Shown here piece by piece: positions 1-28,113 of a DNA stretch of 64,000 bases. Below the pieces are notes generated by a model. It saw nothing but the letters and a program-made list of their open reading frames with translations, did not search any database and had not been told where the DNA came from. This DNA comes from Candidatus Daviesbacteria bacterium (GTDB lineage: Bacteria; Patescibacteriota; Microgenomatia; Daviesbacterales; UBA10151), in the NCBI GenBank assembly GCA_041690695.1, contig JBEPVZ010000002.1, positions 1,454-65,453 of the forward strand, in the 5' to 3' direction. How positions within the stretch are numbered: position 1 is the first letter of the stretch; each line of letters starts with the position of its first letter. The position numbers and the translations under genes are program-made.

Positions 1-268
1 TTTTGGTTCGTTTAATTGAAGAAAAGTTTAGTTTAAGTCCTAAAATTGCTAGTACAAGTGTAATTGGTAAAGTTAATAGATCAAGGTGAATTACTAATAA
101 AATATAAGAGATTACCGTAAAGACGACATAACCTAAGGTTACACTTAATATAATCTTGGCCCAGAAATTAATCTGATTAAAAATCTTGTTAATAATTAAT
201 AGTCCTGGTAGGCCAAATAAAACGACGATTAATATAAAAAACAAACTAAATTCGAGAAGAATTTGCAT
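1..268 (-). CDS. hypothetical polytopic membrane protein; N-terminal part only, gene runs past the window start
   Basis: Reverse-strand ATG at 266..268. The frame stays open to position 1 and reads MQILLEFSLFFILIVVLFGLPGLL..., strongly hydrophobic. It is not in the supplied ORF track, which lists complete ORFs only. Confidence 0.4.
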   Translation of the reverse strand, partial: MQILLEFSLFFILIVVLFGLPGLLIINKIFNQINFWAKIILSVTLGYVVFTVISYILLVIHLDLLTLPITLVLAILGLKLNFSSIKRTK

Positions 269-321
269 AGCTGATTAAGCTATTATACGTTAGTTTTACT
301 TCTAGTTGTAAAGCCTGTAAG

Positions 322-1473
322 ATGGGAAAGATGCTTTCTAAAATATCTATTTCTTTGATATTTTCATGTTGTCTTATAATATTCTTTAGTTATTGGATTG
401 GGACTAATTTACATTTAAAATCGCCTACCCCAATAAGTTTTACAATAGCTGATTTATTTGGTAAACACCTTGAAACACCCTTTATCTTGATGATACTAGC
501 TAGTTTGGGGAGTGTTTTCTTACTTTTTTTCGTAGTTCAAAAACTGTTTGATTCAACTCTGGCAAATTTATCGATATTAATCTTTGGACTTAATCCGTGG
601 ACATCTTATGAAAGTGCAAGTAATTCAGTTTATGTCTTATTTACATTTGAGATATTAGCTGTTTTGGGAGCCTTGCTTTTACCGATTAAGAATGTATATC
701 TAAAGAGCCTAATTATCGGGGCGATTAGTTTTATAGCAATAATTTCGAGTTTATGGATGTGGCTAATTATTCCATCTCTAGTTTATTCGGGTTATAGATT
801 GGGTTGGATTAGCTCTAAAGAATTTAAATTCGTTAGCAGCTTGATTGGGCTAGCTCTAATTATTATGTTTATTTTAGGCGTTAAACACGAAAGTTATTTT
901 CTGCGAGTCATTAATCAAAATATTAATCTTTTTCAAAACGCCAAGGTCTTAAATAATATCAATCTATTTCATGATCAATTTAGAATTGGTGGTTATAGAG
1001 TGGGAGAAATTATTGAAAATAAATATTTCTACGATACTCAACATCTCTTTTTTCATTTTGCTGAATATTTCTCCCCAGTCATTTATTTTACCAGCCAAGC
1101 TAAAATAGATGACTTTTCGTTTAGTCCGCCAATTTATCTGGCACTGATCTTCCCCTTTTTTTATGGGTTAGATCTTTTTTTTACTAAATTTAAAATTAAG
1201 TATAAAAAACTACTTTGTATAAATATTATTTTATTGCTGTTACCTGCAACCCTCTCTAATATTCAACCTGATCTAGGTAGATTGTTTCTCATTTTTCCTA
1301 TAATAACTTTTCTAATATCTTTAGGTTTAAGAGGTTTTTATAAGCTATATCATCAATCTCGATCAGCTAAATTTTTGTTAATTTTATTAGCGAGTTTGTT
1401 CTTATTTCAAGTCATTGTGACGATGTCAGATATTGCCAATAGGGAACCAATTAGAATAAAAAACAATGCTTAA
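322..1473 (+). CDS. integral membrane protein; truncated or degenerate paralog of the PMT/ArnT-like GT-C family, lacking the DE loop
   Basis: GLNPWTSY and AEYFSPVIYFTSQ segments align with ISPW... and ...P.FLF.SG... blocks of the 1466, 9013, 10677 and 12245 paralogs. There is no S-L-N-x-D-E motif (ADLFGKH instead) and no C-terminal WQYGYK domain. Confidence 0.5.
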   Translation: MGKMLSKISISLIFSCCLIIFFSYWIGTNLHLKSPTPISFTIADLFGKHLETPFILMILASLGSVFLLFFVVQKLFDSTLANLSILIFGLNPWTSYESASNSVYVLFTFEILAVLGALLLPIKNVYLKSLIIGAISFIAIISSLWMWLIIPSLVYSGYRLGWISSKEFKFVSSLIGLALIIMFILGVKHESYFLRVINQNINLFQNAKVLNNINLFHDQFRIGGYRVGEIIENKYFYDTQHLFFHFAEYFSPVIYFTSQAKIDDFSFSPPIYLALIFPFFYGLDLFFTKFKIKYKKLLCINIILLLLPATLSNIQPDLGRLFLIFPIITFLISLGLRGFYKLYHQSRSAKFLLILLASLFLFQVIVTMSDIANREPIRIKNNA

Positions 1474-3136
1474 ACCATCGAAAAATTTAGTTTTTATAAC
1501 TATATTCATTTTAATTTTTATGTTAGGGACCTTTCTTCGTTTTGTGAACTTTACTAACAACCCAGTCAGCTTGAATATTGACGAGGTGGCTATTGGATAT
1601 AATGCTTACTCGATTTTAAAAACTGGTCGAGATGAATACGGCCTCTTTTTGCCGCTATCATTTAAGTCGGTTGGGGATTATAAACCGCCAGTCTTAATTT
1701 ATTTAACTGTTCCATCAATTGCGATTTTTGGTTTGAATGAATTTGGAGTTAGATTTCCGGTCGCTCTCTTGTCTAGCCTAACAATCTTGTTTGGGTACTT
1801 TCTCTTTAAACGATTAACTGACAATAAAACAATTGCTCTACTCGCGATGTGTCTACTTGCGATTTCACCATGGGGAATTTATTACGCTCGTTATGCTGAT
1901 GAAGCAACGGTAGCATTATTTCTAGTGGTAGTTGGAGCTATTTGTTTTTTTAAAATGATTGATAAGCATAGCTTGTCTTGGCAGGTTCTTTCGGCGGTTT
2001 TTTTAGGAATCTCAATGTATTGTTACTATACCGAACGACTTTTTGTACCAATACTTTTAGGAATACTATTATTTAGTTATATAAAGCAAAGAAAGCTAAC
2101 TTTTAAGGGTTGTTTAATCTTTCTAGTTACTTTGGGATTACTAATTAGTCCGCTTATTCTCTCAACTATTTTTGGTCCTGATAAAACACGGGTAGCTACG
2201 ACATTTATTACCAATGATCCGGAACTACAGCGCCAAGTTTTAACCTCACAAAACCAGATCTTGCCCAATTCATTATTTAGCTTTTTTGATAATAATCTTT
2301 TCCTCTCTATTTTTTATGGCATCCGAAAATATTTGTATTATTTTCATCCAGCCTTTCTTTTTTATAACGGACTAAATATGACAATTGATAATAGCTATGG
2401 GTTAGGAGTTGTCTACTTATTTGAACTGCCATTTCTGCTAATGGGCGGATATATTCTTATTAGAAAAAAGATTAAATCCAAGTTAATTATTTTGAGCTGG
2501 TTATTACTAGGAATTTTACCAGCGGCATTAACTCAAAATGAACAACACTCACTTCGTACGCTAGTGGCATTACCGATCTTTAATTTAATCTCGGCCTTAG
2601 GTGGATACGATCTATTTGGGCGGATTAGAAAAATGAAAGTTAATTACCAGCTGGCGATTGGTTCAGGTTTTACGCTGGTCGTTTTTATTCTTTTAGTCCA
2701 TGCTTATTTTGTTTTTAGTGTTTACTTTAAATATCAAAGGGGAGAAGCCTTTATGGAAGGGACTAAACAAGCCGTTAAATATGCGCTCGATCATAAAGCT
2801 GAGTATAATGAGATTGTTTTTGATCCGGTTAGAGGCGTAGATGGTCCAGATATTGTAAGTATTCCCCATATGTATGTTTTGTTTTACTCTCAATATGATC
2901 CCTCAATTTATCAAACTGAAATGAAAAGATATGGTACAAATAACCAAGATTTGTACGGCTTTGATAAATTTACAATTCGTCATATTGATTGGCCGACTGA
3001 TCACTCCAAAACAAAAACCTTATTTATTGGTAGCCCCTGGTCAATACCCTTGCAAGATATTCCTCAAGATCAAATTCTTCAAAAAATTTATCTGACTAAT
3101 GGCAAACTTGCTTTAATAATTGCCAAATCAGATTAA
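1466..3136 (+). CDS. GT-C fold glycosyltransferase, PMT/ArnT-like (GT39/GT83-type), polyprenyl-phosphate-sugar dependent
   Basis: N-terminal TM, then the SLNIDEVAIGYNAYSILKTGRDEYG loop (DE catalytic motif) and FKSVGDYKPP. Multiple TMs. C-terminal soluble domain ending in the ...PHMYVLFYSQYDP block. Overlaps the upstream gene by 8 bp. Confidence 0.7.
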   Translation: MLKPSKNLVFITIFILIFMLGTFLRFVNFTNNPVSLNIDEVAIGYNAYSILKTGRDEYGLFLPLSFKSVGDYKPPVLIYLTVPSIAIFGLNEFGVRFPVALLSSLTILFGYFLFKRLTDNKTIALLAMCLLAISPWGIYYARYADEATVALFLVVVGAICFFKMIDKHSLSWQVLSAVFLGISMYCYYTERLFVPILLGILLFSYIKQRKLTFKGCLIFLVTLGLLISPLILSTIFGPDKTRVATTFITNDPELQRQVLTSQNQILPNSLFSFFDNNLFLSIFYGIRKYLYYFHPAFLFYNGLNMTIDNSYGLGVVYLFELPFLLMGGYILIRKKIKSKLIILSWLLLGILPAALTQNEQHSLRTLVALPIFNLISALGGYDLFGRIRKMKVNYQLAIGSGFTLVVFILLVHAYFVFSVYFKYQRGEAFMEGTKQAVKYALDHKAEYNEIVFDPVRGVDGPDIVSIPHMYVLFYSQYDPSIYQTEMKRYGTNNQDLYGFDKFTIRHIDWPTDHSKTKTLFIGSPWSIPLQDIPQDQILQKIYLTNGKLALIIAKSD

Positions 3137-3215
3137 ATGAACTTTTGGTAAATAATGTTTTGCTACTTTTATAGCTAAGGGGTTAAAGGTATATTTAGAA
3201 GTATTCCAAATTTCT

Positions 3216-4553
3216 ATGATAATAAAGTTACTTAAAAATAATAAAAAATTACTGATATTAATTGTCCTATTTGTGGCGCTAGTCTTTAGACTTGCCATAA
3301 TAAGTTATGCGACTCATCCTGATATCTTTTCGTTCGCGAGTTGGGGGAAATGGATTTATGATTATGGTACAAAAGGTTTTTATGAGAATAATGTTTGGGT
3401 TTATGAATGGCCGAATCTGCCACCACTATTAAATTTAATTTTTGTGGGTATGAGATGGTTTTATTTGTTTAGTTTGAAAACTGTTCATCTATTTGATTAT
3501 TATCTTATACCATCATTTATTAGCTATAACTTGCCAGGGTGGAAAGACTGGGTGAGCTGGTACGGCGAAACTAATTATTATCCATATACCTTTCTTCCAA
3601 ATGGCTATATTATCTGCCTAAAACTAGTTGGGGTTATTTCTGATCTACTAATTGGCTGGCTTGCCTTTAAGGTGGCCATTAAACACCTTAGTTATAAAAG
3701 CAGTTTAATATTAGCCAGTCTTTTTGTATTACTCCCTTTTAGCTGGTATTTAAGTACCTTATGGGGACAATATGAATCACTTGTCGCCTTATTCTTAATT
3801 GGAGGGATTCTTTTATTAATCAAGAGATCCTTTTTATTATCCGTACTCTTTATAGCAATTAGTATAAGTATTAAACCAACCAGTGGAGTCTATTTACCTG
3901 TTTATCTGGTCTATTTCTTTAGCCTTCGGCCTAAAATATCAACCTTTTTAATCTCAATCTTTTTAGTCATCATTTTGATAATTACTACGGTGGCACCGTT
4001 TGCAAATAAGGACTTATTTACCTACCTTTATAATGATATTTATCCAAAAGTTTTTTCAGAGTATAGATTTAGAATTACAGATCATGCTTTTAATTTTTGG
4101 AGTATTTTTTATCCATCTGGGGTTTGGTTATCTTCAAAGAATATATTGTTTTTACCGGCTTCAACGTGGAGTCTTTTCGTATTTGTTGGATTAATAATTT
4201 GGTCAAGTTTAATAGTTATTAAGGGGAATATTAAAAATGTACTTAAAGGCTTTTATTTAATGGGCGGTGGAAGTTACCTCTTTATGACTGGTATGCATGA
4301 TCGATACTTTTTCAGTGCGGTGGCTCTTTTAGGTTTTTTAACTATTTTTTATTCAAAATTACTTAAATATTGGATTTTGACAACTTTGTTGTTCTTTTTT
4401 AACTTACTTTATTCATGGGGCTACCCGATTTTTACTCCTGGTCAGGTTTGGGATAATAGTCTTGTCATCCAAATTTCAAGTATTGGTCAAGTGGTCTTAT
4501 TTATTATCTGTTTGTATGAGTTAGGTTTATTGTATAAAATAAGAAGAGGATAA
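3216..4553 (+). CDS. polytopic membrane protein, probable GT-C-type glycosyltransferase (family unclear)
   Basis: 445 aa with about 10 predicted TM segments. The first loop is aromatic-rich (EWPNLPPLLN, WKDWVSWYG). The operon context is GT-only. Confidence 0.45.
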   Translation: MIIKLLKNNKKLLILIVLFVALVFRLAIISYATHPDIFSFASWGKWIYDYGTKGFYENNVWVYEWPNLPPLLNLIFVGMRWFYLFSLKTVHLFDYYLIPSFISYNLPGWKDWVSWYGETNYYPYTFLPNGYIICLKLVGVISDLLIGWLAFKVAIKHLSYKSSLILASLFVLLPFSWYLSTLWGQYESLVALFLIGGILLLIKRSFLLSVLFIAISISIKPTSGVYLPVYLVYFFSLRPKISTFLISIFLVIILIITTVAPFANKDLFTYLYNDIYPKVFSEYRFRITDHAFNFWSIFYPSGVWLSSKNILFLPASTWSLFVFVGLIIWSSLIVIKGNIKNVLKGFYLMGGGSYLFMTGMHDRYFFSAVALLGFLTIFYSKLLKYWILTTLLFFFNLLYSWGYPIFTPGQVWDNSLVIQISSIGQVVLFIICLYELGLLYKIRRG

Positions 4554-4557
4554 AATT

Positions 4558-5463
4558 ATGGCACAAAACAAGATCACAGTCGTTATTAATACTTTAAACG
4601 AACAAAAAAATATTGCCCGAGCGATCGAATCGGTTAAGTGGGCGGATGAGATTTTAGTCTGCGACATGCAATCAGATGATGATACGGCTTTAATTGCCAG
4701 GAAGATGGGCGCAGTCGTTATTTTCCATAAGAGGATGGGTTTTGTTGAGCCAGCGCGGAATTTTGCTATTTCCAAAGCTTCACATGAATGGGTTTTAATT
4801 GTTGATGCTGATGAAGAGATCCCGGACTCTTTAGCAAAATACCTACAAGAGATGGTCCAAAAGCCAATTGTCTCGACCTTTGTTGAAATACCTCGCCAAA
4901 ATATTATTTTCAATAAATGGATGAAAGCTTCGATGTGGTGGCCAGATTATAATATTCGATTTTTCAAAAAAGAGGCTGTGACATGGAGTGACCATATTCA
5001 CCGCCCACCTAAAACAGAGGGTCAAGGTCTGACTTTACCCGGAGAAGAACGCTGGGCGATAATTCATCATAACTATACTAGTGTTAGCCAATTTATTGAT
5101 CGTTTGAACCGATATTCGACGATTCAAGCCAAAGAGCTTAAACAATCAGGCACAGAATTTAAATGGACGGATCTATTAACTAAACCGATTGAGGAGTTTT
5201 TAGGGCGTTTCTTTGCTAATCGAGGTTTTGACGATGGCTTGCACGGTTTAATTCTGAGTTTATTACAAGCTTTTTCATTTTTGGTTGTTTATATAAAATT
5301 ATGGGAATTAAACGGTTTTAAGGAAGATCAGATTAAATTGAGTGAAGTCAGAATTGAAACGGATAAGATTGGTCAACAGATTAACTATTGGTTTAACTTT
5401 CAGTCTTTGTCGAAAAATCCGCTTCGTCGAGTTATTCAGAAGGCTCGAGCTAAACTAAAATGA
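4558..5463 (+). CDS. GT2 family glycosyltransferase (paralog group A)
   Basis: ITVVINTLNEQKNI...VKWADEILVCD...DTALIA...LIVDADEEI carries the GT2 DxD signature. Paralogous to 6306, 13866 and 46375. Confidence 0.7.
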   Translation: MAQNKITVVINTLNEQKNIARAIESVKWADEILVCDMQSDDDTALIARKMGAVVIFHKRMGFVEPARNFAISKASHEWVLIVDADEEIPDSLAKYLQEMVQKPIVSTFVEIPRQNIIFNKWMKASMWWPDYNIRFFKKEAVTWSDHIHRPPKTEGQGLTLPGEERWAIIHHNYTSVSQFIDRLNRYSTIQAKELKQSGTEFKWTDLLTKPIEEFLGRFFANRGFDDGLHGLILSLLQAFSFLVVYIKLWELNGFKEDQIKLSEVRIETDKIGQQINYWFNFQSLSKNPLRRVIQKARAKLK

Positions 5464-6305
5464 TTAAAGTTGGAGTAGTTATTCTTAACTACAAAGTTAA
5501 GAATTTAGCTCTTAAATGTCTTAATTCTGTTCTGGCTTCATCGTTTAAACCCACACATGTTGTAATGGTTGATAACAGCTCAGGTGATGATATAGAAAAG
5601 GAACTTCCAAAATCTGAGAGGGTAGAATTTATTCAAACAGGTCAAAATCTCGGATATACGGGTGGAAATAATGTTGGGATTAAGCACTTGCTTAAGTATG
5701 ATCTTGACTATATCTGGATTCTTAATCCAGACTTAACTGTCGATAAGAAGGCTTTGGAAATTTTAACAAACAAGTCCGAGCAATTAGGGGCTGGAATTAG
5801 TTGTCCTAAGATCTACTTTGAAGGCTCGAAAAAATTATGGTATGCCGGCGGAATATTCGATAAAGCAAATGTTTTAGGAAGCCATCGAGGGGTTGATGAG
5901 CAAGATACTGGTAAATATGATACTGATCAAGAAACTGATTATGCGACCGGCGCCGCCATGTTTATCTCAAGACAGGTTTTAGAAAAAGTTGGCTTATTTG
6001 AAGAGCGTTATTTTTTATATTATGAAGATAGTGATCTGTCGCTTCGGGCAAAACAAGCCGATTTTAAGGTTATGTATATACCGGAGGCCGTTGTTTTTCA
6101 TAAAAATGCCCAGTCAACTAAGCTTGGTTCACCAATTCAAGATTACTATATTACTAGAAACCGAATGCTACTGGCTTCTAAGTTCTTGCCATTTCGGACC
6201 AGATTTGCTTTACTGCGAGAAGGAGTTCGTAATATTCAACAGCCCATTCGTCGCAAAGCCTTACTAGATTTTTTGCTGGGTAGATTTGGTCAAGGAAAAA
6301 TATAA
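5460..6305 (+). CDS. GT2 family glycosyltransferase (paralog group B, rhamnosyl/WbbL-like)
   Basis: VGVVILNYK...VVMVDNSSGDD...NLGYTGGNNVG...YYEDSDLSLRA. ATGA overlap with the upstream gene. Confidence 0.7.
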   Translation: MIKVGVVILNYKVKNLALKCLNSVLASSFKPTHVVMVDNSSGDDIEKELPKSERVEFIQTGQNLGYTGGNNVGIKHLLKYDLDYIWILNPDLTVDKKALEILTNKSEQLGAGISCPKIYFEGSKKLWYAGGIFDKANVLGSHRGVDEQDTGKYDTDQETDYATGAAMFISRQVLEKVGLFEERYFLYYEDSDLSLRAKQADFKVMYIPEAVVFHKNAQSTKLGSPIQDYYITRNRMLLASKFLPFRTRFALLREGVRNIQQPIRRKALLDFLLGRFGQGKI

Positions 6306-7112
6306 ATGATTAGCGTAATTATTATTACTAAAAATGAGCAAGATCAGATTAAAACTTGTTTAGAATCAGTAAAATGGGCCGATGAGATTATTGTCTATGA
6401 TAACGGTTCAACGGATCAGACTTTAAAAATTGCTAAAGAATATACAGATAAGATTTTTACTTTTGAAGGTCAAGACTATGCTGAACTTCGCAACCGGGCT
6501 TTTAAAAAAGCCACCGGAGACTGGGTTTTATACGTTGATGCCGATGAAAGAGTCTTGACTGATCTGAAAGATGAGTTAATCCAGATCTCAAAGTCTTCCG
6601 ATAAATCGGCTTTTGCAATTTCTAGGCGCAATATTATTTTCGGGTCTGAACAAAAATATGGTCCTTTTTGGCCAGATTGGATGATTCGTTTTTTTAAAGC
6701 TCAAGAATTTAAAACTTGGGTGGGCAAGATTCATGAATATGGAACCTTTAATGGTCAACTGGGTTACACCAAGAATTCATTTTTGCATTTAACTCACCGC
6801 AATTTAGATCAGATCGTTTTGAAAAGTCTCCATTGGTCAAATTTTGATGCTAAATTAAGGCTTGACTCGAAACATCCCAAAATGACGGGCTGGCGATTTT
6901 TAAGAATCTTTATAACCGAGACCTGGAATCAAGGAATTAAAAGACGCGGTTTTTTTAATGGCAGTATTGGAATAATGGATTGTCTTTTACAAACCTTTAG
7001 TCTTTATATGAGCTACATCCGACTTTGGGAGCTTCAGCAGCCTAAATCTTTAGATCAAGTTTATAAAGATATTGATTTGGAGCTTTTAAAAGATCAATTT
7101 CAATATAAATGA
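6306..7112 (+). CDS. GT2 family glycosyltransferase (paralog group A)
   Basis: ISVIIITKNEQDQIKTCLESVKWADEIIVYDNGSTDQT...YVDADERV. Close paralog of 4558..5463. Confidence 0.7.
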   Translation: MISVIIITKNEQDQIKTCLESVKWADEIIVYDNGSTDQTLKIAKEYTDKIFTFEGQDYAELRNRAFKKATGDWVLYVDADERVLTDLKDELIQISKSSDKSAFAISRRNIIFGSEQKYGPFWPDWMIRFFKAQEFKTWVGKIHEYGTFNGQLGYTKNSFLHLTHRNLDQIVLKSLHWSNFDAKLRLDSKHPKMTGWRFLRIFITETWNQGIKRRGFFNGSIGIMDCLLQTFSLYMSYIRLWELQQPKSLDQVYKDIDLELLKDQFQYK

Positions 7113-8182
7113 AAATCGCAATCTATAGTCCTTATTTAGACACTATCGGCGGAGGTGAGCGGTACATGTTAACTATCGCTGAAACATTAGCTTCCGATCA
7201 TCAGGTTGATGTCCTCTTAGATAATCATTTATCTAGTTTAGATATAAATTTATTAAAAGAAACTTTATCTAAAAGATTAAATTTGGACCTAAAAGCAGTT
7301 AATTTTATTAAAGCTCCACTGGGGTCTGATTCAAAAGCGCTGAATCGATCGTTATTTTTGCGAAAATATGATGTTTTGTTTTGTTTAACGGATGGTAGTA
7401 TCTTTTACTCAACCGCCAGGAAAAGTATTTTGCATATTCAATCGCCTTTAACGAATAACCAAAAAACTAAACTTAAAAATAAAATTAAACTGTCGAGTTG
7501 GGACTTGATAATTTATAACTCTGAATTTACCAAAAAACATGCTGAGAAGAGTTGGCCAATTAAATCTCAAGTTATTTATCCGCCTGTTGATCTTTCCGGG
7601 ATAAAGCCGCTTACTAAAAAGAATTACATTTTGTCCGTTGGGCGTTTTTTTGGATATTTGCGCGAAAAGAAACATGAAGTCTTAATTAGGTCTTTTATTG
7701 AGATGTATCAAAAAAATAATTTAAAAGGCTGGAGTTTACATTTAGTGGGATCGGCTACATCAGGTGATACAAAATATTTAAATGAATTAACAAAGATGGC
7801 TGAAGGTTTCCCAATCTATTTATATCCCAATTTAAATTATCAAAAATTACTTAAATTATATGGTCAGTCTTCAATTTATTGGCATGGAGCTGGTTTTGAG
7901 GAAACCGATCCAACTAAAATGGAGCATTTTGGTATAACTACTGTTGAGGCCATGGCGGGAGGATGTGTACCAGTCGTTATTGGACAAGGTGGTCAAACTG
8001 AAATTATCCAAGACAAAACCGATGGGTTTTTATGGAAGGATTTAGATGAATTAAATAAATTAACTCTAAAGATTATTGAGGATAAGACTCTTCGTCAAAG
8101 GATGACTAAACAAGCGATTATTCGAGCGAAAACCTTTTCTAAAGATAAATTTGAGGACCGGATTCGGGAGGTTATTAAATGA
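7109..8182 (+). CDS. GT4 family glycosyltransferase
   Basis: GT-B architecture. C-terminal FGITTVEAMAGGCVPVVIGQGGQTEII gives the E-x7-E motif. Confidence 0.7.
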   Translation: MKIAIYSPYLDTIGGGERYMLTIAETLASDHQVDVLLDNHLSSLDINLLKETLSKRLNLDLKAVNFIKAPLGSDSKALNRSLFLRKYDVLFCLTDGSIFYSTARKSILHIQSPLTNNQKTKLKNKIKLSSWDLIIYNSEFTKKHAEKSWPIKSQVIYPPVDLSGIKPLTKKNYILSVGRFFGYLREKKHEVLIRSFIEMYQKNNLKGWSLHLVGSATSGDTKYLNELTKMAEGFPIYLYPNLNYQKLLKLYGQSSIYWHGAGFEETDPTKMEHFGITTVEAMAGGCVPVVIGQGGQTEIIQDKTDGFLWKDLDELNKLTLKIIEDKTLRQRMTKQAIIRAKTFSKDKFEDRIREVIK

Positions 8183-8958
8183 CTTTACCTAAAGTTTCGG
8201 TTATTACGGTTACTTATAACAGTGAAAAGGCTATTGGCAATTTAGTAAGCTCTTTATCAAAAAGTTTACCATCAGGCAGTGAAATTATTATTGTCGATAA
8301 CGCTTCAACAGATCGAACAATTCAGATTGCAGAGAAGCAAACTGGAGTTAAAGTTATTCAATCTGAAAAAAACTTAGGTTTTTCAGCAGGTTGTAATCTT
8401 GGAGCAAAACAATCTCGGAATGATTATTTATTATTTTTAAATCCTGATACTCAAGTTAATAAAAATTCAGTGGAAGAGTTAATTAATTACTTAGCCAGCC
8501 ATTCTGAGGTTGGAATTGTGGCCCCAAAATTAATTGAAGATAACGGACGAAATCAGCCCTCCGCTCGAAATTTCCCAACTTTTTGGAAGGCTTTTCAAGA
8601 ATATTATTTGGGAAAGAAGTCGATATATGATGGTTTTTCTCCAAAAGGTCTAGATCCCGTTACTATTGAAAGTGTGGTTGGAGCAGCTATGTTAATTCCT
8701 AAGCATGTTTTCCAAAAAGTGGGTGGATTTAGTGAAAAATACTTTATGTATTATGAAGATATTGATCTTTGTTTGAAGGTCAATAAACTTGGTCTGAAAG
8801 TCGTTTATTTACCAACGGCGACTTTTAAACATCAAGTTGGAGGCAGTTTTTCTCCTCAAAAGCAAAAATGGCTAAAGGATTCAGCCAAAATTTACCATGG
8901 TCTTTGGCAATACTGGTTATTAACCATCCTTCTTAAACTACGTCCAAAGTCAAAATAG
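8179..8958 (+). CDS. GT2 family glycosyltransferase (group B)
   Basis: VSVITVTYNSEKAI...IIIVDNASTDRT...NLGFSAGCNLG...YYEDIDLCLK. Confidence 0.7.
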   Translation: MTLPKVSVITVTYNSEKAIGNLVSSLSKSLPSGSEIIIVDNASTDRTIQIAEKQTGVKVIQSEKNLGFSAGCNLGAKQSRNDYLLFLNPDTQVNKNSVEELINYLASHSEVGIVAPKLIEDNGRNQPSARNFPTFWKAFQEYYLGKKSIYDGFSPKGLDPVTIESVVGAAMLIPKHVFQKVGGFSEKYFMYYEDIDLCLKVNKLGLKVVYLPTATFKHQVGGSFSPQKQKWLKDSAKIYHGLWQYWLLTILLKLRPKSK

Positions 8959-9012
8959 TGCTCATGCCAATTGTTTTTTAGGCTCAGAAAATGAGACAAT
9001 AATTCTAATCTT

Positions 9013-10680
9013 ATGTTTGGACTTTCAAAAGATTGGCTAGTAAAAATTACCCTGGTTTTAATTATCGTTTTAGCTTTTTTCTTGAGATTTTACAAAGTTA
9101 CTGAGGATCCACCTTCACTAAATTGGGATGAAGTCGCGATTGGCTATAATGCCTATTCGATTATGAAAACAGGTCGTGATGAGTGGAATCAGCCCTGGCC
9201 GATTCATTTTAAATCGTATGGAGAATATAAACTCCCGGTCCAAATCTATGGTTCTATTCCCGGTATCGCTATTTTTGGTTTAAACGAGCAAGGCGTCAGG
9301 ATTACACCAGTTGTTTATGGGACGCTAACGGTTTTACTAATGTTTTTCTTAGGTAGGGTTTTATTTAAGAGTCGGGCAGTTGGATTATTGTCAGCGTTTT
9401 GTTTAGCCATCTCTCCTTGGCATATTCAACTAACGCGAGCTTCCTTTGAATCTTCATTTTCAGTTTTTTGGATTGTAATGGCGATGTGGTTTTTAATTAA
9501 AGGTTTTAAAAAGCCGATATGGCTAATTTGGTCGATGATCCCATTTGCGATATCGGTTTATACCTATAACAGTGCCAGAGTTTTTAGCCCGTTATTTATC
9601 TTTGCGATTTTAATTATTTATAGAAAAGAGTTATTTAAATTTAAAAAGTATTTAGCTGGAGCATTTATTTTATTTGCTATTTTAATGTTGCCTCTAATTC
9701 CATTTTTTATTACAACTCATGGCACTTCTCGTTATAAGTTAGTTAGTGTGACCGATGATCCAGGTTTGGTGCCTCGAATTGACGAGGCTCGTGGCAAATC
9801 AACCTTACCAGAACCTTTAAAGAGGTTAGTTTTAAATAGAGCGACATACGTAAGTGTAGCTGTAGTCGGAAATTATTTAGCCCATTTTACCCCCCAGTTT
9901 TTATTCATTTCCGGTGCTCCTCATCATCAACATAATGTTCAAGGAATGGGGGAGTTATATTATTGGCAAGCGCCATTTTTATTAATTGGACTGTTTTTGT
10001 TGTTTAAAAAACGTCACCCAAGTCGAGCTTTGTTAATAGCTTGGATATTATTATCGATTGTCCCGGTGAGCATTACTAATGATAGTATTCCTCATGCTTT
10101 AAGAACTTTAATTGCGGCACCGTTTTATCAGTTAATAATAGCTTTTGGTTTATATCAGTCGTGGCTATATTTGAATAAAAAAGATCATTGGTTTGTGCCA
10201 GTCAGCGTCAGCTTATTATGCGGTACGGTTTTAATAAGTTTAGCGATTTACTTAGCTAATTTTTATTTGATTTATCCTGTTAAATATTCAAAAGATTGGC
10301 AATATGGTTATAAACAAGTTGTTAATTATCTGGTTGCTAATCAATCCAAGTATGATGAGATTGTGTTTTCAAGGACATATGGTGAACCACATATGTTTAC
10401 ACTATTTTATTCACAATATGACCCGGCTAAATTTCAAACGAATCCAAATTTAAATCGCTTTGAAACTTATGATTGGGTCAGAGTTTTAAATTTTGATAAA
10501 TATTATTTTCCAGATTTAGGTGATCTTGGAACTAAATATGCCGATATTGTCAATCAGAATCCTGGCAAAAAGCTACTCTTTATTGGAAAACCTGGGGATT
10601 TCCCAGATAGCTTACCTCGTCTTTTAACCGTTAACTTCTTAAACGGCGATAAAGCTGTCGAAGTTGTAGAATCTCCATGA
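9013..10680 (+). CDS. GT-C glycosyltransferase, PMT/ArnT-like (tandem paralog 1 of 3)
   Basis: SLNWDEVAIGYNAYSIMKTGRDEWNQPWPIHFKSYGEYKLPV, multiple TMs, and a C-terminal DWQYGYKQV...EPHMFTLFYSQYDP domain. Confidence 0.7.
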   Translation: MFGLSKDWLVKITLVLIIVLAFFLRFYKVTEDPPSLNWDEVAIGYNAYSIMKTGRDEWNQPWPIHFKSYGEYKLPVQIYGSIPGIAIFGLNEQGVRITPVVYGTLTVLLMFFLGRVLFKSRAVGLLSAFCLAISPWHIQLTRASFESSFSVFWIVMAMWFLIKGFKKPIWLIWSMIPFAISVYTYNSARVFSPLFIFAILIIYRKELFKFKKYLAGAFILFAILMLPLIPFFITTHGTSRYKLVSVTDDPGLVPRIDEARGKSTLPEPLKRLVLNRATYVSVAVVGNYLAHFTPQFLFISGAPHHQHNVQGMGELYYWQAPFLLIGLFLLFKKRHPSRALLIAWILLSIVPVSITNDSIPHALRTLIAAPFYQLIIAFGLYQSWLYLNKKDHWFVPVSVSLLCGTVLISLAIYLANFYLIYPVKYSKDWQYGYKQVVNYLVANQSKYDEIVFSRTYGEPHMFTLFYSQYDPAKFQTNPNLNRFETYDWVRVLNFDKYYFPDLGDLGTKYADIVNQNPGKKLLFIGKPGDFPDSLPRLLTVNFLNGDKAVEVVESP

Positions 10681-12248
10681 AAAAGTTATTTATTTTTTCC
10701 GTCGGTTTAATTCTAGTAATTGGTATTTTTTTACGTTTTTACAATCTTGGTAATACCCCTCCTTCATTAAATTGGGACGAAGCGTCGATTGGGTATGATG
10801 CCTGGTTAATTAGTCAGACTGGGACGGATCAATGGGGAGCACATTGGCCTTTAATTTTTAAGTCATTTGGAGAATATAAATACCCCTTCCATATTTATGC
10901 GACTGCTTTAGTCATTAAATTAATAGGTTTATCAGATTTTGCGGTTAGACTGCCTTCGGCCGTAATGGGACTTGTCTGTTTAGGGCTACTTTATCTTTTA
11001 GCCAAAAGGTTAACTAACTCAAAAATTATTGCTTTAATAGCCGTTAGCTTATTATCAGTTTCGCCGTGGAGTATTCAATTTTCAAGAATAAATTGGGAAA
11101 CAAATTTTGCCTTATCATTTTTTCTGTTTGGATTATTATTGTTTTATAAGGGTTTAGAAAATAAAAGATTGTTATTTATTTTCTCTTTTTTACTTTTTGG
11201 ATTAACTATTTTTACATATAATGCGGCTAAAGTCTTTACCCCACTCTTTGTTGTCTGCTTAATCCTAATTTATCGGAAGGAATTATGGCAGCAAAAGATA
11301 ATTAGTCTTATTGGCATAGCTGTTTTTGGAATTTTTATTTTAGCTAATATTTTAAATCCTCAAATTTCTGGTTTGGTTAGGTATAGTCAGGTTAGTTTTA
11401 CTGAGGACTCAATTAAGGCCACTAATTTATATAACCTGACACATAAGCATCTGTTTGGAAAAGCTCAATTAGTTGTCGGAAGTTATTTATCTTATTATTC
11501 ACCAAAATTCTTATTTTTATCGGGCGATCCGAGTCTGCAGCATTCGACTCAAGCGGTTGGAGAAATATATTGGCTTGAAGGTCTATTCTTAATAATAGGC
11601 GTTGTCTATTTATTTAAAAACAAAAAATCGAAAATTAATCAAATTCTTCTGGCTTGGCTAATAATCGCACCTCTGGCTGGTTCTTTAACCCAAGAAGCTC
11701 CTCATGCCGGTCGGGCGATGTTTGAATTAGGTGCGCTTCAAATTATTGAGGCGATTGGTGTCTACCAACTGTACGGATTATGCAAAACTAAAGTCGCTAA
11801 ACATATATTTGCAATACTGACTCTGTCACTTTTCTTAATTAATATTAGTTTTTACAGTTATAATTACTTTTATGTTTACCCGCTTGCTGATTCTGTTGAT
11901 TGGCAATATGGATACAAAGCTTTTTATCAAAAGTATAGTCCCATTTTAAGTCAATATAACCAGATTTACTTTTCCCCACAATACGCGGAACCTTATATTT
12001 TTGCACTTTATTATTTAAAAGTTCCTGGAAACGAATTTAGATCGACGGCTATTTATAATAAAGAGAGCGAATGGGGATTTTCAACGGTAACGAGCTTTGC
12101 TAACTTTAATTTTAATAGATTTAGCGATGTTCCACTAGGTAATAATTTAATTGTTTCTGAAAAGCCAGGTCAATTTAAAGGTTACAATTTAACTGATCAG
12201 ATCAAATTTTTAGATCAATCAACCGCCTTTTATATCTATAGTCAATGA
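10677..12248 (+). CDS. GT-C glycosyltransferase, PMT/ArnT-like (tandem paralog 2 of 3)
   Basis: SLNWDEASIGYDAWLISQTGTDQWG...FKSFGEYKYP and a C-terminal DWQYGYKAF...EPYIFALYYLKVP block. 4-bp overlap with both neighbours. Confidence 0.7.
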   Translation: MKKLFIFSVGLILVIGIFLRFYNLGNTPPSLNWDEASIGYDAWLISQTGTDQWGAHWPLIFKSFGEYKYPFHIYATALVIKLIGLSDFAVRLPSAVMGLVCLGLLYLLAKRLTNSKIIALIAVSLLSVSPWSIQFSRINWETNFALSFFLFGLLLFYKGLENKRLLFIFSFLLFGLTIFTYNAAKVFTPLFVVCLILIYRKELWQQKIISLIGIAVFGIFILANILNPQISGLVRYSQVSFTEDSIKATNLYNLTHKHLFGKAQLVVGSYLSYYSPKFLFLSGDPSLQHSTQAVGEIYWLEGLFLIIGVVYLFKNKKSKINQILLAWLIIAPLAGSLTQEAPHAGRAMFELGALQIIEAIGVYQLYGLCKTKVAKHIFAILTLSLFLINISFYSYNYFYVYPLADSVDWQYGYKAFYQKYSPILSQYNQIYFSPQYAEPYIFALYYLKVPGNEFRSTAIYNKESEWGFSTVTSFANFNFNRFSDVPLGNNLIVSEKPGQFKGYNLTDQIKFLDQSTAFYIYSQ

Positions 12249-13861
12249 AAAATTTAACGAAAATCTGCTTATTTTTGATAATTTTGCTAGCTTTTGGCTT
12301 GAGAGTTTATCAGTTGAATACAGTCCCACCGTCGCTTGATTGGGATGAGGTTGATGTTGGTTACAATGCTTTTACAATTGCCAATTATGGACATGACGAA
12401 TGGGGGAAAGCCTTTCCTCTAACCTTTCAATCCTTTGGTGATTATAAAAGTCCAGTTCATATTTACTTAACGGCTTTAGTTGTTAAGCTACTCGGATTAT
12501 CAGATTTTGCTGTTCGCTTGCCAATGGCGTTAGTTGGTACTTTGTCGGTCTTGATGATCTTTTTTCTAGCCAGGGAACTATTTAAAAATGATTATATTGG
12601 GATAATTGCGGCTTTAGTACTTGCGGTCTCACCATATAGTTTACAGTTTTCTCGATTTAATCATGAAGGGGTAGTGGCGGTGTTTGTATTTATGTTGGCG
12701 CTCTACTTGTTCTTAAAAGGAATACGACTAAAAAATTGGCTATTACCACTCGGTTTTATTTGTTTTGGAATTACTTTAATTACATATCATCCGCCTAAAA
12801 TAGTTACCCCGATTTTTTTGGTTTTATTAATCGCAATTTATTTTAAAGAACTTTTAAAAGTAAAAAAACTATTTGTGATTGGACTCTTAGGTTTAGGCCT
12901 AGTCTGTGGTTTATTCTTTCTTGATCCTAATTTAAGCGGTTTGGCTAGATCGGCTCAGACTTCAATACCAGATAGCTATTATATGCAGCAACCGATTTAT
13001 GCGGAGACACATAATCTGTTATTAGCTAAAGTAAAAGTTGATAGCGATCGCTACTTGTCTCATTTTTCTCTCAATTATCTATTTATTCATGGAGATCAAA
13101 TTGCTCGTCATTCGACCCAACTGGTTGGTGAGTTTTATATTATCGATCTATTCTGGTTATTAATCGGTGTTATTAGCTTAATTAAGCTTAAGAATAAATC
13201 AACTTTGGTAGTTTTTAGCTGGGCATTACTTGCTCCTCTTCCAGCCAGCATTACGGGTGGTATTGGAGAAGCTCCCCATGCGGCGCGAGCTATTTTAATG
13301 ATGGGCAGTTGGCATCTTATTATTGCCTTTGGTCTTTATAGTTTTATTATTTTGCTGAAAAGGCCTATTTTAAAGAAAGTTGTTCTTCTCTCGATTGGAT
13401 TGATATATCTTTTTCTAGTTGTAACATATCTAAGAGGTTATTACACGGTTTATCCGATAAAACAGGCTATTGAATGGCAGTATGGGGTAGCTAAAGCGGC
13501 TCAATATGTCAAGGATCACCCTCACCAGTACCAACGGGTTTTTGTAACTGCCGAAAGATCTCAGCCATATATATTCTTTTTATATACGCTCAAGGTACCA
13601 TTACCGGAATATTTAGATAATGTCACTCTTAATCAGGACTCGCATAAAAGTAGTAATTTAGTGTCGATTTTTTGGTTTAATCATACTCAATATAATTTCG
13701 GTAACTGGGATCCGATTGAAAGTATGCCTGATCCTAATGTACTGTACATTTTAACTCCGAGTGAGTACGATGGTTTACGACACAAAACGGATTTTGAAAT
13801 TAAAGATTTAATTAAATATCCGAGTGGAGTCGAAGCATTTTTCTTAGTTAGTAAAAAATAA
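12245..13861 (+). CDS. GT-C glycosyltransferase, PMT/ArnT-like (tandem paralog 3 of 3)
   Basis: SLDWDEVDVGYNAFTIANYGHDEWG...FQSFGDYKSPV and a C-terminal EWQYGVAKAAQYV...QPYIFFLYTLKVP block. Confidence 0.7.
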   Translation: MKNLTKICLFLIILLAFGLRVYQLNTVPPSLDWDEVDVGYNAFTIANYGHDEWGKAFPLTFQSFGDYKSPVHIYLTALVVKLLGLSDFAVRLPMALVGTLSVLMIFFLARELFKNDYIGIIAALVLAVSPYSLQFSRFNHEGVVAVFVFMLALYLFLKGIRLKNWLLPLGFICFGITLITYHPPKIVTPIFLVLLIAIYFKELLKVKKLFVIGLLGLGLVCGLFFLDPNLSGLARSAQTSIPDSYYMQQPIYAETHNLLLAKVKVDSDRYLSHFSLNYLFIHGDQIARHSTQLVGEFYIIDLFWLLIGVISLIKLKNKSTLVVFSWALLAPLPASITGGIGEAPHAARAILMMGSWHLIIAFGLYSFIILLKRPILKKVVLLSIGLIYLFLVVTYLRGYYTVYPIKQAIEWQYGVAKAAQYVKDHPHQYQRVFVTAERSQPYIFFLYTLKVPLPEYLDNVTLNQDSHKSSNLVSIFWFNHTQYNFGNWDPIESMPDPNVLYILTPSEYDGLRHKTDFEIKDLIKYPSGVEAFFLVSKK

Positions 13862-13865
13862 TTTT

Positions 13866-14729
13866 ATGACAAAAATCTCTGTAGTTTTAGCTGTTTATAA
13901 TGAAGAATCAAATCTTGATGTCTGTCTTAAATCAGTTGAGGGCTTAGCTGAGGAAATAGTTATTGTTGATGGTGGCTCGAGTGATAAAACTGTTGAAATT
14001 GCCAATAAATATCGAGCTCGGGTAATTGTGACTGATAACCCGCCTGTTTTTCATATTAATAAGCAAAAAGCTCTTGAAGCAGCCAAATATGAATGGATTC
14101 TTCAACTAGATGCCGATGAGATTATTCCCAAAGCTTTATCTCAGGAAATATTGTTGGTAACAAAGATGGATCAGATTGAGCTTGAAAAATATCAACATTC
14201 GCTACCTAGTCGAAAGTTATTTTTGAGACATCAAGCTTTAGTTGCTGCCCGAGATGGGCGAGTGGGTGATGAAACGGGCAGTTATAATGCCTTCTTTATT
14301 CCTCGCTTAAATTATTTCTTAGGTAAATATTTAAAATATGGGGGTACTTATCCTGATCCAGCTATTCGGTTGGTTAAGAAGGGCTATGCGCATTTTCCAG
14401 CTAAAAGCGTTCACGAGCAGATGCAAGTTGAGGGACAAGTTGGTTGGTTAGAAAGTCCGATGTTACATCGTGATTCACCAACCTTTAGTCGTTATTTAAA
14501 GCGAAATAATCGATATATTGATTTGATGGTTAAAGAATTTAAAATTCAGCATTTGCCGAAAAGTTTTATTAACGGTTTAAACTATTTGGTTATTAAGCCT
14601 GTAGGTTGGTTTTTACTAACTTCAATTCGTCATAAAGGCCTACTAGATGGCTATCAAGGGCTTATTTTTTCGTTTTTTTCATCACTTCGCTTTCCAAGAT
14701 CTTATTGGCGATATTTATGGAGTAAATAA
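13866..14729 (+). CDS. GT2 family glycosyltransferase (group A-like)
   Basis: ISVVLAVYNEESNLDVCLKSVEGLAEEIVIVDGGSSDKT...LQLDADEII. Confidence 0.65.
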   Translation: MTKISVVLAVYNEESNLDVCLKSVEGLAEEIVIVDGGSSDKTVEIANKYRARVIVTDNPPVFHINKQKALEAAKYEWILQLDADEIIPKALSQEILLVTKMDQIELEKYQHSLPSRKLFLRHQALVAARDGRVGDETGSYNAFFIPRLNYFLGKYLKYGGTYPDPAIRLVKKGYAHFPAKSVHEQMQVEGQVGWLESPMLHRDSPTFSRYLKRNNRYIDLMVKEFKIQHLPKSFINGLNYLVIKPVGWFLLTSIRHKGLLDGYQGLIFSFFSSLRFPRSYWRYLWSK

Positions 14730-15769
14730 TGAAAGTTGCGATTCAGGTAGATAAAAATAGTGGCCATAGTTTGAGAGGAATTGGCTATTATACCGACAGC
14801 TTGGTCAAGGCTTTGGAGAAGTGTCCTGATCTAGAGATTAAGCTGTTTAATAAGACAGAAGAAATAACAAATGTAGATTTAATTCATTATCCATCCTTTG
14901 ATCTGTTTAAAAAAACATTACCACTTCATCATAAATACCCCGTAGTTGTCACTATCCATGATTTGACCCCACTTTTATTTCCTAAAAACTATCCACCCGG
15001 ACTTAGAGGTCGACTTAATTTTAATCTTCAAAAGCTGGCTTTAAGAAATGTTAGTCATATAATCACTGACTCTGAGTCTTCGAAAAAAGATATTGTTCGA
15101 ATTTTAAAAATTAATCCCGAAATAGTTAATGTAATCTATCTAGCCCAGCCGGATTTTTTTAAGATAATCTCGGATAAAGCTACGCTTAAAAAGATTCAAA
15201 TTAAGTACAGTTTGCCAGAAAAATTTGGTTTGTTTGTAGGAAGTGTTAATTGGAATAAAAACTTATTGAATATGGCTGAGGCCAGTTTAATGGCGGGATT
15301 GGATCTGGTTTTAGTTGGTAAAGATTTTGAAAAGGCTCATGATCTTAACCATCCAGAGCTAAAATCTTACAAAGAGTTCTTGCATAAATACGTTGATAAT
15401 CCGAAGATTCATAAATTAGGCTTTCTCTCGGATGAAGATCTAGTTAAGGTTACAAATCTGGCGACCGTTCAGCTTTTCCCCTCTTTTTATGAGGGCTTTG
15501 GATTGCCAATCTTACAGGCTCAAGCTTGTGGTGTGCCAGTTATTACAAGTAATGTCTCCTCTATGCCGGAGGTCGCAGGAAAAGGGGCTATTTTAATTAC
15601 CCCAGGCCATGTTGGGGAGATTATCCAAGCTATCACCGATATCCAGAATAATTCTACGGTTCGTCAGAATTTAATTAAATTAGGGTTTATAAATGTAAAT
15701 AAGTTCTCTTGGCAAAAAGCGGCGCAACAGACTATTAATATTTATGAAAAAGCAGTTAAATCAAAATAA
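14729..15769 (+). CDS. GT4 family glycosyltransferase
   Basis: FYEGFGLPILQAQACGVPVITSNVSSMPEVAG is the GT4 E-x7-E region. Confidence 0.7.
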   Translation: MKVAIQVDKNSGHSLRGIGYYTDSLVKALEKCPDLEIKLFNKTEEITNVDLIHYPSFDLFKKTLPLHHKYPVVVTIHDLTPLLFPKNYPPGLRGRLNFNLQKLALRNVSHIITDSESSKKDIVRILKINPEIVNVIYLAQPDFFKIISDKATLKKIQIKYSLPEKFGLFVGSVNWNKNLLNMAEASLMAGLDLVLVGKDFEKAHDLNHPELKSYKEFLHKYVDNPKIHKLGFLSDEDLVKVTNLATVQLFPSFYEGFGLPILQAQACGVPVITSNVSSMPEVAGKGAILITPGHVGEIIQAITDIQNNSTVRQNLIKLGFINVNKFSWQKAAQQTINIYEKAVKSK

Positions 15770-18097: not shown

Positions 18098-18100
18098 TCT

Positions 18101-18129
18101 TTGACTTGATGATGAGGCGTTTGTATACT
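18101..18129 (+). promoter_or_regulatory. candidate sigma70-type promoter (TTGACT-17 bp-TATACT) for the 18138.. gene
   Basis: TTGACT at 18101..18106, a 17-nt spacer, and TATACT at 18124..18129. Only 8 nt separate the -10 from the ATG at 18138. Confidence 0.35.
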
Positions 18130-18137
18130 CTTATTTA

Positions 18138-28039: not shown

Positions 28040-28113
28040 TTTGGGGTTAAGTATATGAATTCTCTTACACAGTTGCAATCTGCTATTTATTACCGATAAA
28101 ATAACTCAAGTTT

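Follow-up and report, generated by a model that had tools for sequence, protein, structure and literature searches.

What do four diverged copies of one membrane glycosyltransferase do at a single locus of a Candidatus Daviesbacteria genome? The question is raised by a stretch of 64,000 nt, here called the window, which encodes four paralogs that we named A, B, C and D (Table 1). Three of them form a tandem triple, B-C-D, and A sits upstream, with a 5.9-kb cassette in between. The original prediction, made from the letters of the DNA, had read four open reading frames (ORFs) of the plus strand at these positions, and the ORF list confirmed them. Our results indicate that A-D are probably extracytoplasmic transferases that use polyprenyl-phosphate-linked sugars and carry out distinct steps on a cell-envelope glycan or glycoprotein.

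The four proteins are related over nearly their full length. In an all-against-all BLASTP comparison, identity was 37% for C-D (E 1e-113), 34% for B-C (E 1e-88) and for A-B (E 1e-84), 33% for B-D (E 1e-79), and 30% for A-C (E 1e-53) and A-D (E 1e-52). In the same search, the polytopic neighbours encoded at 3216-4553 and 15744-16862 matched A-D at E > 0.2 only. Because the alignments run almost from end to end while these neighbours stay at that level, the similarity is not a mere effect of hydrophobic or transmembrane composition, and the homology that had been proposed was borne out by pairwise alignment. A tblastn search of A-D against the window gave no fifth close copy, only weak matches to more distant genes. 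The description as a four-copy family is right for the close paralogs and too low for the window, which encodes five more distant PMT_2 genes.

The N-terminal motifs that had been noticed in the translations were found in all four proteins, with small variations. The N-terminal loop reads SLNIDEVAIGYNA in A, SLNWDEVAIGYNA in B, SLNWDEASIGYDA in C, and SLDWDEVDVGYNA in D. The second motif is TGRDEYG (A), TGRDEWN (B), TGTDQWG (C), and YGHDEWG (D), and the third is FKSVGDYK (A), FKSYGEYK (B), FKSFGEYK (C), and FQSFGDYK (D). A shared C-terminal block had also been claimed; it exists as a domain that is homologous in all four, but its literal motifs do not occur in every copy. DWQYGYK is exact in B and C only, D having EWQYGVA and A having AFMEGTK, and the second C-terminal motif appears as EPHMFTLFY (B), EPYIFALYY (C), QPYIFFLYT (D), and IPHMYVLFY (A).

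To which family do these proteins belong? All four pass the Pfam cutoffs for PMT_2 (PF13231; A 67.3, B 46.2, C 60.2, and D 55.7 bits; cutoff 26.1) and for the PMT N-terminal domain (PF02366; A 36.3, B 36.9, C 27.7, and D 26.6 bits; cutoff 22.7), in agreement with the proposal of a PMT/ArnT-like GT-C family of four diverged paralogs. No other Pfam family matched any of them at E <= 0.01; MIR and PMT_4TMC were both absent. None of the four passed a curated NCBIfam model. The bacterial Pmt equivalog (NF058602) matched D only, with 20.2 bits against a cutoff of 800, and the ArnT equivalog (NF009784) matched A (21.8 bits) and D (22.6 bits) against a cutoff of 567, with no match in B or C. The best NCBIfam match of A, C, and D was TIGR03663, the Agl23 family, at 50-52 bits against a cutoff of 126.25; it covered model positions ~3-187 of 435, and B did not match it. 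An equivalog-level identity as Pmt, ArnT, or Agl23 was rejected on these scores.

When the A-D profile was compared by sequence with solved structures, ArnT was the sole significant match in the PDB (E 3e-7, 11% identity), and STT3 was weak. A fold search with a predicted model showed that A-D share the polytopic membrane fold of solved GT-C enzymes. The figures listed were 21.2 for ArnT (399 residues aligned), 21.0 for STT3B, 20.0 for ALG12, 18.4 for AglB, 17.8 for PglB, 17.7 for Pmt4, and 17.0 for Pmt2, and the heteromeric GT-Cs Pmt1-Pmt2 (6p25/6p2r) and EmbA-EmbB (7bvf) were also returned. A-D are GT-C enzymes of the PMT_2 clan, roughly equidistant from ArnT, STT3, and PMT, and they lack the defining features of GT39 or GT83. 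The N-terminal loop had been taken for the DE signature of GT39/GT83. The PMT/ArnT-like character and the DE pair hold; membership in those two families does not, since MIR and PMT_4TMC are missing and the equivalogs fail. Database names of the relatives follow the same two families: NCBI calls them 'glycosyltransferase family 39 protein' and JGI 'ArnT-like'.

The NCBI name implies that A-D could be true GT39 protein O-mannosyltransferases, which would transfer mannose from polyprenyl-phosphate-mannose to Ser/Thr residues in secreted proteins, S-layer or pilus subunits for example. Like Pmt1, Pmt2, Pmt4, and the bacterial Pmt, A-D match the Pfam PMT N-terminal domain, above cutoff, and have an Asp-Glu pair just after the first transmembrane helix (TM1; D77/E78 in Pmt1). 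The model has ~11 helices, the seventh and eighth being joined by a long loop, a layout that resembles that of the PMTs. However, the PMTs have a MIR domain in this loop and a C-terminal PMT_4TMC module, neither of which is matched in A-D, whereas A-D end in an additional alpha/beta domain without a PMT counterpart. The bacterial Pmt equivalog reaches 20 of the 800 bits needed, in D only, and the structural similarity to ArnT, STT3, and ALG12 is no lower than that to the PMTs. Moreover, many PMT_2 enzymes act on wall polymers and not on proteins (PMC8035078). We consider it unlikely that A-D are protein O-mannosyltransferases.

The JGI name points to GT83, that is, to ArnT-type lipid modifiers that would add an aminoarabinose-like sugar to a membrane lipid. 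ArnT (5EZM/5F15) resembles A-D in having a soluble domain after the last helix, on the outer side, and its K85 and D158 align with K73 and E146 of A-D; an ArnC-like GT2 is also encoded in the window. Against this, the identity to ArnT is only 11%, and the ArnT equivalog stops at 22 bits against 567. The ArnC match is far below its cutoff as well (165 against 529 bits), and neither another arn pathway gene nor a lipid A pathway was apparent among the window ORFs scanned. ArnT has 13 helices, versus ~11 in the A-D model, and bacteria of the Candidate Phyla Radiation (CPR) are not known to have an outer membrane or lipid A. An ArnT-type function is hardly credible here.

The extracytoplasmic action that we favor for A-D depends on which side of the membrane their conserved parts lie. 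Topology was predicted from the model of B and from the lysine and arginine (K/R) residues counted in the short loops between model helices; a plain Kyte-Doolittle scan had given fragmented, overlapping helix calls. The prediction has ~11 membrane helices, with the N-terminus inside. In each of A-D, the short loops assigned to the inside contain 14-18 K/R per ~55 residues, and those assigned to the outside contain one, the invariant R142, per ~27 residues. Extracytoplasmic positions are predicted for the loop with the DE pair, for the long loop that joins helices 7 and 8, and for the C-terminal domain. A cytoplasmic DE loop would have spoken against a GT-C enzyme of this kind; the K/R counts place it outside the cell.

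An acidic motif of the DxD or DE type in the first extracytoplasmic loop is a feature of GT-C enzymes (PMC6801728, PMC7801869), and the acidic pair after TM1 is essential in ArnT (D55/E56) and in Pmt1 (D77/E78) (PMC7801869). In A-D, the pair D39-E40 (numbering of B throughout) lies 13 residues past TM1 on the K/R-poor side and is the predicted counterpart of ArnT D55/E56. The profile alignment to ArnT placed K73 on chain index 88 and E146 on 161, both offset by 3 from K85 and D158. ArnT K85 contacts the phosphate of the carrier lipid, and D158, which directly precedes TM4 in the second outer loop, touches the sugar or the acceptor (PMC7801869). Where TM10 begins, PglB (R375), STT3 (R404), and AglB (R426) have a conserved Arg that is a ligand of the carrier phosphate (PMC7801869). 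In the model of B, R364 is located at the start of helix 361-388, the start of TM10, and E146 opens helix 145-166.

All four paralogs read D-E-D-K-R-E-H-R at positions 39, 40, 56, 73, 142, 146, 361, and 364. Because the full set is kept, no copy looks like a dead enzyme, and all four look catalytically competent. The idea that A-D are decaying redundant copies was rejected on this conserved residue set and on the existence of orthologues. Residue conservation was also examined in 347 family members from 82 loci, aligned to the family hidden Markov model (HMM). It was 93% for D39, 92% for E40, 93% for D56, Y79, and R96, 95% for R142, 93% for E146, 94% for Y185, and 98% for R364. The remainder consisted mostly of gaps at N-terminal positions, which we attributed to N-terminally truncated ORF calls (the ORF caller takes the first ATG). 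From K73, which falls on ArnT K85, from R364, which resembles the Arg of STT3 and PglB, and from the synthase candidates encoded nearby, we infer that the donor of A-D is a polyprenyl-phosphate-linked sugar.

One or more of the copies might instead be a flippase or scramblase for lipid-linked sugars, like the archaeal PMT_2-like protein Agl23. The activity reported for Agl23 is translocation, not transfer; the purified H. hispanica protein translocates lipid-linked oligosaccharide in proteoliposomes (PMC11182771). The Agl23 family model is the best NCBIfam match of A, C, and D, at ~50 bits, but this score is below the cutoff of 126 bits, it comes from about the first 185 of 435 positions, and B has no match. 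No GtrA-type flippase was seen among the ORFs scanned, mostly those of >= 120 aa, which is above the size range of GtrA; two Wzx-type flippases, however, are already encoded in the window. In addition, all copies retain what is typical of a transferase, namely the acidic pair and the residues that bind phosphate. A flippase function for any of the four is very improbable.

If A-D are transferases, do they all perform the same reaction? The paralogs are 46-56% identical over TM1 and the first outer loop, and 28-38% identical in the membrane core. Identity falls to 19-36% in the long outer loop (residues 234-312), with <= 15 indel columns, and to 14-33% in the C-terminal domain, which has many indels and is the most diverged part of A-D. 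When 1.84 billion representative proteins were searched with this domain of ~130 residues, 745 of them matched at E <= 1e-3. Among the 150 matches listed, it was C-terminal in proteins of ~520-570 aa or in fragments of these, apart from two longer proteins (766 and 1060 aa), and it looks like a dedicated part of this single architecture. Elsewhere among the GT-C enzymes, it is the flexible outer loop and the soluble domains that engage the acceptor (see also PMC8035078). A conserved catalytic loop combined with a diverged long loop and C-terminal domain makes it most likely, on the sequences, that the copies share their chemistry and differ in acceptor, linkage, or sugar.

Relatives of A-D are widespread in one group of bacteria. 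For B there are > 100 cluster-level relatives at 62-68% identity, those with a name being mostly from Candidatus Daviesbacteria, and a scan with one genome per species showed relatives encoded at a minimum of 542 loci. Where record titles name a lineage, it is nearly always one of the Microgenomates: Daviesbacteria, Woesebacteria, Shapirobacteria, Curtissbacteria, Collierbacteria, Levybacteria, Gottesmanbacteria, or Chisholmbacteria. About 30 of the 79 loci kept have the title 'uncultured Gammaproteobacteria' and come from one series of metagenome-assembled genomes; two are titled 'Clostridia' and one 'Parcubacteria'. We suspect that the 'Gammaproteobacteria' and 'Clostridia' titles on records that bear the family (L005, L007, L011, L013, L016, and ~25 others) are mislabels.

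Tandem arrays are the rule in this subfamily, usually with 2-6 genes. Among 82 sources (81 loci and the window), the longest tandem run had one gene in 15 sources, two in 19, three in 31, four in 12, five in three, and six in two. B orthologues with >= 53% identity were present at 36 loci, one of them a duplicate of another. Downstream of B, a D-type gene was encoded at 28 of these loci, at ~+3 kb in most, with D orthologues 39-50% identical; a GT2 of the 13866 type followed in 28, a GT4 of the 14729 type in 25, a PIG-V-like GT-C in 23, and Wzx and a GT2 of the 18138 type in 12 each. As the loci reach only ~11.6 kb past B, these counts are minimum values. In ~28 genomes, B, a middle gene, and D recur as one block with GT2, GT4, and the PIG-V-like gene.

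The middle gene behaves differently from its neighbours. Positional orthologues from two Daviesbacteria genomes show 63-66% identity to B and 47-48% to D, against no more than 33-34% for the middle gene. When 108 array members were placed in a neighbour-joining tree, B, D, and M, the last being the usual middle gene, formed separate, clean groups, and each of these orthogroups had 100% bootstrap support (a subset of 47 sequences, 200 replicates, groups defined from the tree). C and the middle genes of L003, L030, and L005 grouped with D in 78% of the replicates and with M in 0%. Clear C orthologues were found only in L003 and L030 (45-47% identity), followed by L005 at 39%. The middle slot is thus of the C type in the window and these three loci and of the M type in ~20 others, and no M-type gene was found in the window. 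There are also other arrangements: in L075 the second gene is of the D type and the middle gene is lacking (B then D), and L005 has a C-like and an M-like gene in swapped order. Since C groups with D and never with M, the window has B-C-D where most relatives have B-M-D, apparently through replacement of slot 2 by a D-derived copy.

The closest relatives of A are 43-53% identical to it and likewise precede a B orthologue. The inserts in between vary in length (1.5-6.7 kb) and match the 5.9-kb cassette between A and B in the window. It had been proposed that duplication and divergence created the set at this locus. The paralogs are indeed diverged; as judged from orthogroups common to Microgenomates genomes, however, the duplications are ancient and not a local expansion.

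Are the genes of the triple coupled in translation, as the original prediction also held? The two ATGA overlaps on which it relied are present. Of the 46 same-strand junctions of the window, 17 are exact 4-nt overlaps, and most others overlap or lie within a few bases; the ATGA overlap is a general packing habit of the window and not specific to the array. A 4-mer Shine-Dalgarno core at -20 to -4 was detected for six of 53 window genes, and no Shine-Dalgarno-like core was found upstream of A, B, C, or D. This suggests that translation initiation in the organism is mostly independent of Shine-Dalgarno sequences and/or coupled. Coupling by termination and reinitiation is plausible for this genome in general; the overlaps permit it and do not show it. 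A scan of positions 1-19000 gave 66 promoter-like and 11 terminator-like signals versus 72 and 13 expected from shuffles, and was uninformative on operon boundaries.

The conserved order leads to a refinement that does not exclude the transferase function: B, the middle gene, and D may be putative subunits of an obligate hetero-oligomeric GT-C complex, with the overlaps keeping their amounts matched. The order and adjacency of B-x-D are conserved, D occurring at 28 of the 36 B-carrying loci, and in related loci the 4-nt overlap is the commonest type of intra-array junction (57 cases). Pmt1-Pmt2 (6p25/6p2r) and EmbA-EmbB (7bvf) are precedents for heteromeric GT-Cs. However, the full catalytic set in all copies leaves no purely structural partner apparent, the middle subunit can be swapped between orthogroups and is lacking at some loci (L075), and 4-nt overlaps are generic in this genome. 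We regard such a complex as possible but doubtful.

For A-D as individual transferases, the genes around them allow a route to be proposed. A GT2 on the cytoplasmic face would load a sugar onto polyprenyl phosphate, the candidates being 27107-28078(-), 18138-18920, and 47200-47949. The lipid-linked sugar would be flipped across the membrane, for which the Wzx-type protein 16859-18097 is encoded nearby, and each GT-C paralog would hand the sugar over to an outer-face acceptor. Judged from solved GT-C enzymes, D39/E40 may activate or position the acceptor, K73 and R364 may hold the carrier phosphate, and E146 may contact the sugar. The paralogs would act as successive or parallel steps that build or decorate a cell-envelope glycan or glycoprotein, with B, the middle gene, D, and the GT2, GT4, and PIG-V-like GT-C genes as a conserved block in which the middle slot is exchangeable.

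A similar parts list is known from Gram-positive bacteria, in which multi-component transmembrane glycosylation systems decorate wall polymers; their parts are a C55-P-sugar synthase of the GT-A type, a flippase of the GtrA or Wzx type, and a GT-C, often of PMT_2 (PMC8035078). GtlB, GttB, GacL, CsdD/CsdF, GtsC, and YkcB (PMC8035078) belong to the same Pfam family as A-D. The predicted logic of synthase, flippase, and outside GT-C is the same, and all three kinds of gene surround the A-D array: the GT-Cs themselves, the Wzx-type flippase 16859-18097, and the synthase-like GT2s 18138-18920 and 27107-28078(-). The Gram-positive systems differ in having one GT-C per system, versus 3-4 paralogs in a conserved array here. 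Unlike their members, the A-D subfamily has its own C-terminal domain and is almost wholly from Microgenomates among loci with lineage titles; its link to the characterised PMT_2 members is at the level of the Pfam family.

For the tandem organisation there is another parallel. The mycobacterial embCAB operon has three tandem GT-C arabinosyltransferase paralogs in a cell-envelope glycan locus. Its three GT-C paralogs stand in a row like B-C-D, which is an analogy of organisation and not homology of the arrays. The Emb proteins (EmbA-EmbB, 7BVF) have ~1,050-1,090 aa and large carbohydrate-binding C-terminal domains, and only a distant fold relation to A-D.

More speculatively, and with little confidence, B, the middle gene, and D could form, with the PIG-V-like GT-C, Wzx, GT2, and GT4, a Microgenomates-specific extracytoplasmic assembly line, possibly including a GT-C hetero-oligomer, which makes a lineage-unique glycan of surface proteins or a glycopolymer of the envelope. 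The glycan type would then be set, as by serotype-determining genes, by the middle subunit, which is exchangeable (M in most genomes, the D-derived C here).

Several points weigh against the reading of A-D as transferases with distinct specificities. That the copies differ in specificity is deduced from their divergence. The equivalence of D39/E40 with ArnT D55/E56 comes from the position in the loop and from the Pfam PMT match that spans the pair. The count of 11 helices is a reading of the DSSP string of the model, and model confidence is low for the long loop (residues 234-310). In the neighbour-joining tree, the internal branches are short, the group of C with D stands at 78%, and that of A with the upstream genes is weak (15%); the tree speaks for the orthogroups and not for deeper relationships. 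Finally, the equivalog-level models of Pmt, ArnT, Agl23, and ArnC all fail in the window proteins, so function was transferred at the superfamily level only.

Table 1. Positions of the four paralogs, of their key sites, and of neighbouring genes in the 64,000-nt window
Feature	Position	Strand	Basis or remark
Paralog A, GT-C/PMT_2 glycosyltransferase	1466..3136	+	556 aa
Paralog B, opens the triple, best conserved within the block	9013..10680	+	555 aa
Paralog C, middle gene of the triple, D-related	10677..12248	+	523 aa
Paralog D, third gene of the triple	12245..13861	+	538 aa
Asp39-Glu40 codons of B, predicted catalytic acid pair, start of the first outer loop	9127..9132	+	Translation checked
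Codons equivalent to D39-E40 of B	A 1580-1585, C 10776-10781, D 12344-12349	+	Translation checked
Predicted C-terminal extracytoplasmic alpha/beta domain of B, residues 425-555	10285..10677	+	Homologous, strongly diverged domains end A, C, and D
ATGA overlap, start of C and stop of B	10677..10680	+	Read from sequence
ATGA overlap, start of D and stop of C	12245..12248	+	Read from sequence
Polytopic protein of 383 aa, overlaps A by 8 nt	322..1473	+	hhalign against the family profile, 66%, E 5.6e-5
Cassette between A and B	3216..8958	+	Pfam; one polytopic protein, four GT2, one GT4
Polytopic protein in the A-B cassette	3216-4553	+	445 aa, no Pfam family
GT2 genes in the A-B cassette	4558-5463, 5460-6305, 6306-7112, 8179-8958	+	Pfam
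GT4 gene in the A-B cassette	7109-8182	+	Pfam
Syntenic downstream block	13866..20944	+	Pfam; same order after B-x-D in other genomes
GT2	13866-14729	+	Pfam
GT4	14729-15769	+	Pfam
PIG-V-like GT-C	15744-16862	+	Pfam
Wzx-type flippase	16859-18097	+	Polysacc_synt, 63 bits
Polyprenyl-phosphate-sugar-synthase-like GT2	18138-18920	+	Best NCBIfam matches PgfS, PpgS, ArnC, 52-60 bits
Protein of 675 aa	18917-20944	+	Sub-threshold DUF3863 only, 16.9 bits
ArnC/GtrB-type GT2, 323 aa, candidate polyprenyl-phosphate-sugar synthase	27107..28078	-	NCBIfam ArnC, 165 bits against cutoff 529
Candidate donor synthase GT2	47200-47949		Resembles AglJ, dolichyl-phosphate hexose transferases
Further PMT_2 genes, distant from A-D, 468-741 aa	24962-27106, 31982-34207, 47946-49415(-), 50260-51666, 53410-54867		Pfam

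Almost all genes of the window are on the plus strand, and they include nine PMT_2 GT-C genes, ~18 GT2, ~9 GT4, and five S-adenosylmethionine methyltransferases, as well as a PIG-V-like protein, a PTPS_related (YfhO-like) polytopic protein, two hexapeptide acyltransferases, a weak Wzy_C-like protein, an amine-oxidase-type flavoprotein, and, besides the Wzx-type flippase of the downstream block, a second one at 45113-46375. Judged by this content, the whole 64-kb window is a predicted glycan-synthesis island. Of the five further PMT_2 genes, 53410-54867 matched the family HMM with 32 bits and the other four gave nothing; all five belong to other GT-C subfamilies. The candidate synthase 27107-28078(-) aligns end to end with the ArnC model (residues 13-306 on positions 4-293 of 316) and scores 131 bits with PgfS.

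Two polytopic proteins next to the paralogs were compared with the family profile. The protein encoded at 322-1473 has no Pfam or NCBIfam match; in the hhalign comparison, family positions 102-390 align to its positions 60-346. It is probably a truncated remote relative of A-D that lacks the DE loop and the C-terminal domain, and it was too divergent for the tree. The polytopic protein 3216-4553 was rejected as a further family member (hhalign probability 11%).

Some other observations concern single ORFs. A TTG-start ORF of 128 aa at 4527-4913 (-), antisense to the GT2 4558-5463, is probably spurious. The protein 18917-20944 is hydrophobic at its N-terminus and again in a segment near residue 500, and at least four related loci encode a homologue (42-43% identical) after the block. 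Large ORFs without a Pfam family are 37539-39158 (539 aa), 39155-42082 (975 aa), 55896-57449 (517 aa), and 3216-4553 (445 aa); these four may encode further divergent GT-C-like proteins. Positions 37692-38156 showed weak tblastn similarity to residues 61-214 of A (E 6.6e-4). A minus-strand toxin-antitoxin pair lies inside the plus-strand island at 59525-60120 (-), its two genes overlapping by 19 nt; the PemK/MazF-like toxin (111 aa) scored 41.7 bits, above cutoff, and the MazE/AbrB-like antitoxin (92 aa) 21.5 bits, just below it. No tRNA gene and no Rfam family at the gathering threshold was found across the 64 kb.

How much of this is new? Neither the superfamily nor its fold is new, the same holds for the catalytic logic and the three-component pathway, and the proteins have been labelled automatically in databases. 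A search of the literature on glycosyltransferases of CPR bacteria, Patescibacteria, and Microgenomates found no description of the A-D family or its arrays; a paper on one genome goes no further than '29 genes of glycosyl transferases' (PMC7143001). The Microgenomates subfamily with its own C-terminal domain, the conserved B-x-D block, and the swap in slot 2 are undescribed in the literature searched. A specialist would not be surprised by the result, and its practical value, for annotation and for studies of CPR cell surfaces, is modest but real. The name 'glycosyltransferase family 39 protein', given automatically, must not be equated with protein O-mannosyltransferase, and the orthogroups A, B, M, and C/D are now defined, together with a candidate set of catalytic residues for mutation.

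CPR bacteria have genomes of ~1 Mb and are thought to live attached to other cells, and their surface chemistry is almost unknown. If the genomes are of this size, a 64-kb glycan island is a large share of the genome. The conserved operon is offered for heterologous expression, as a way to learn what these organisms display on their surface. That an ordered GT-C block is kept across many Microgenomates genomes points to a large and conserved investment of these bacteria in extracellular glycan.

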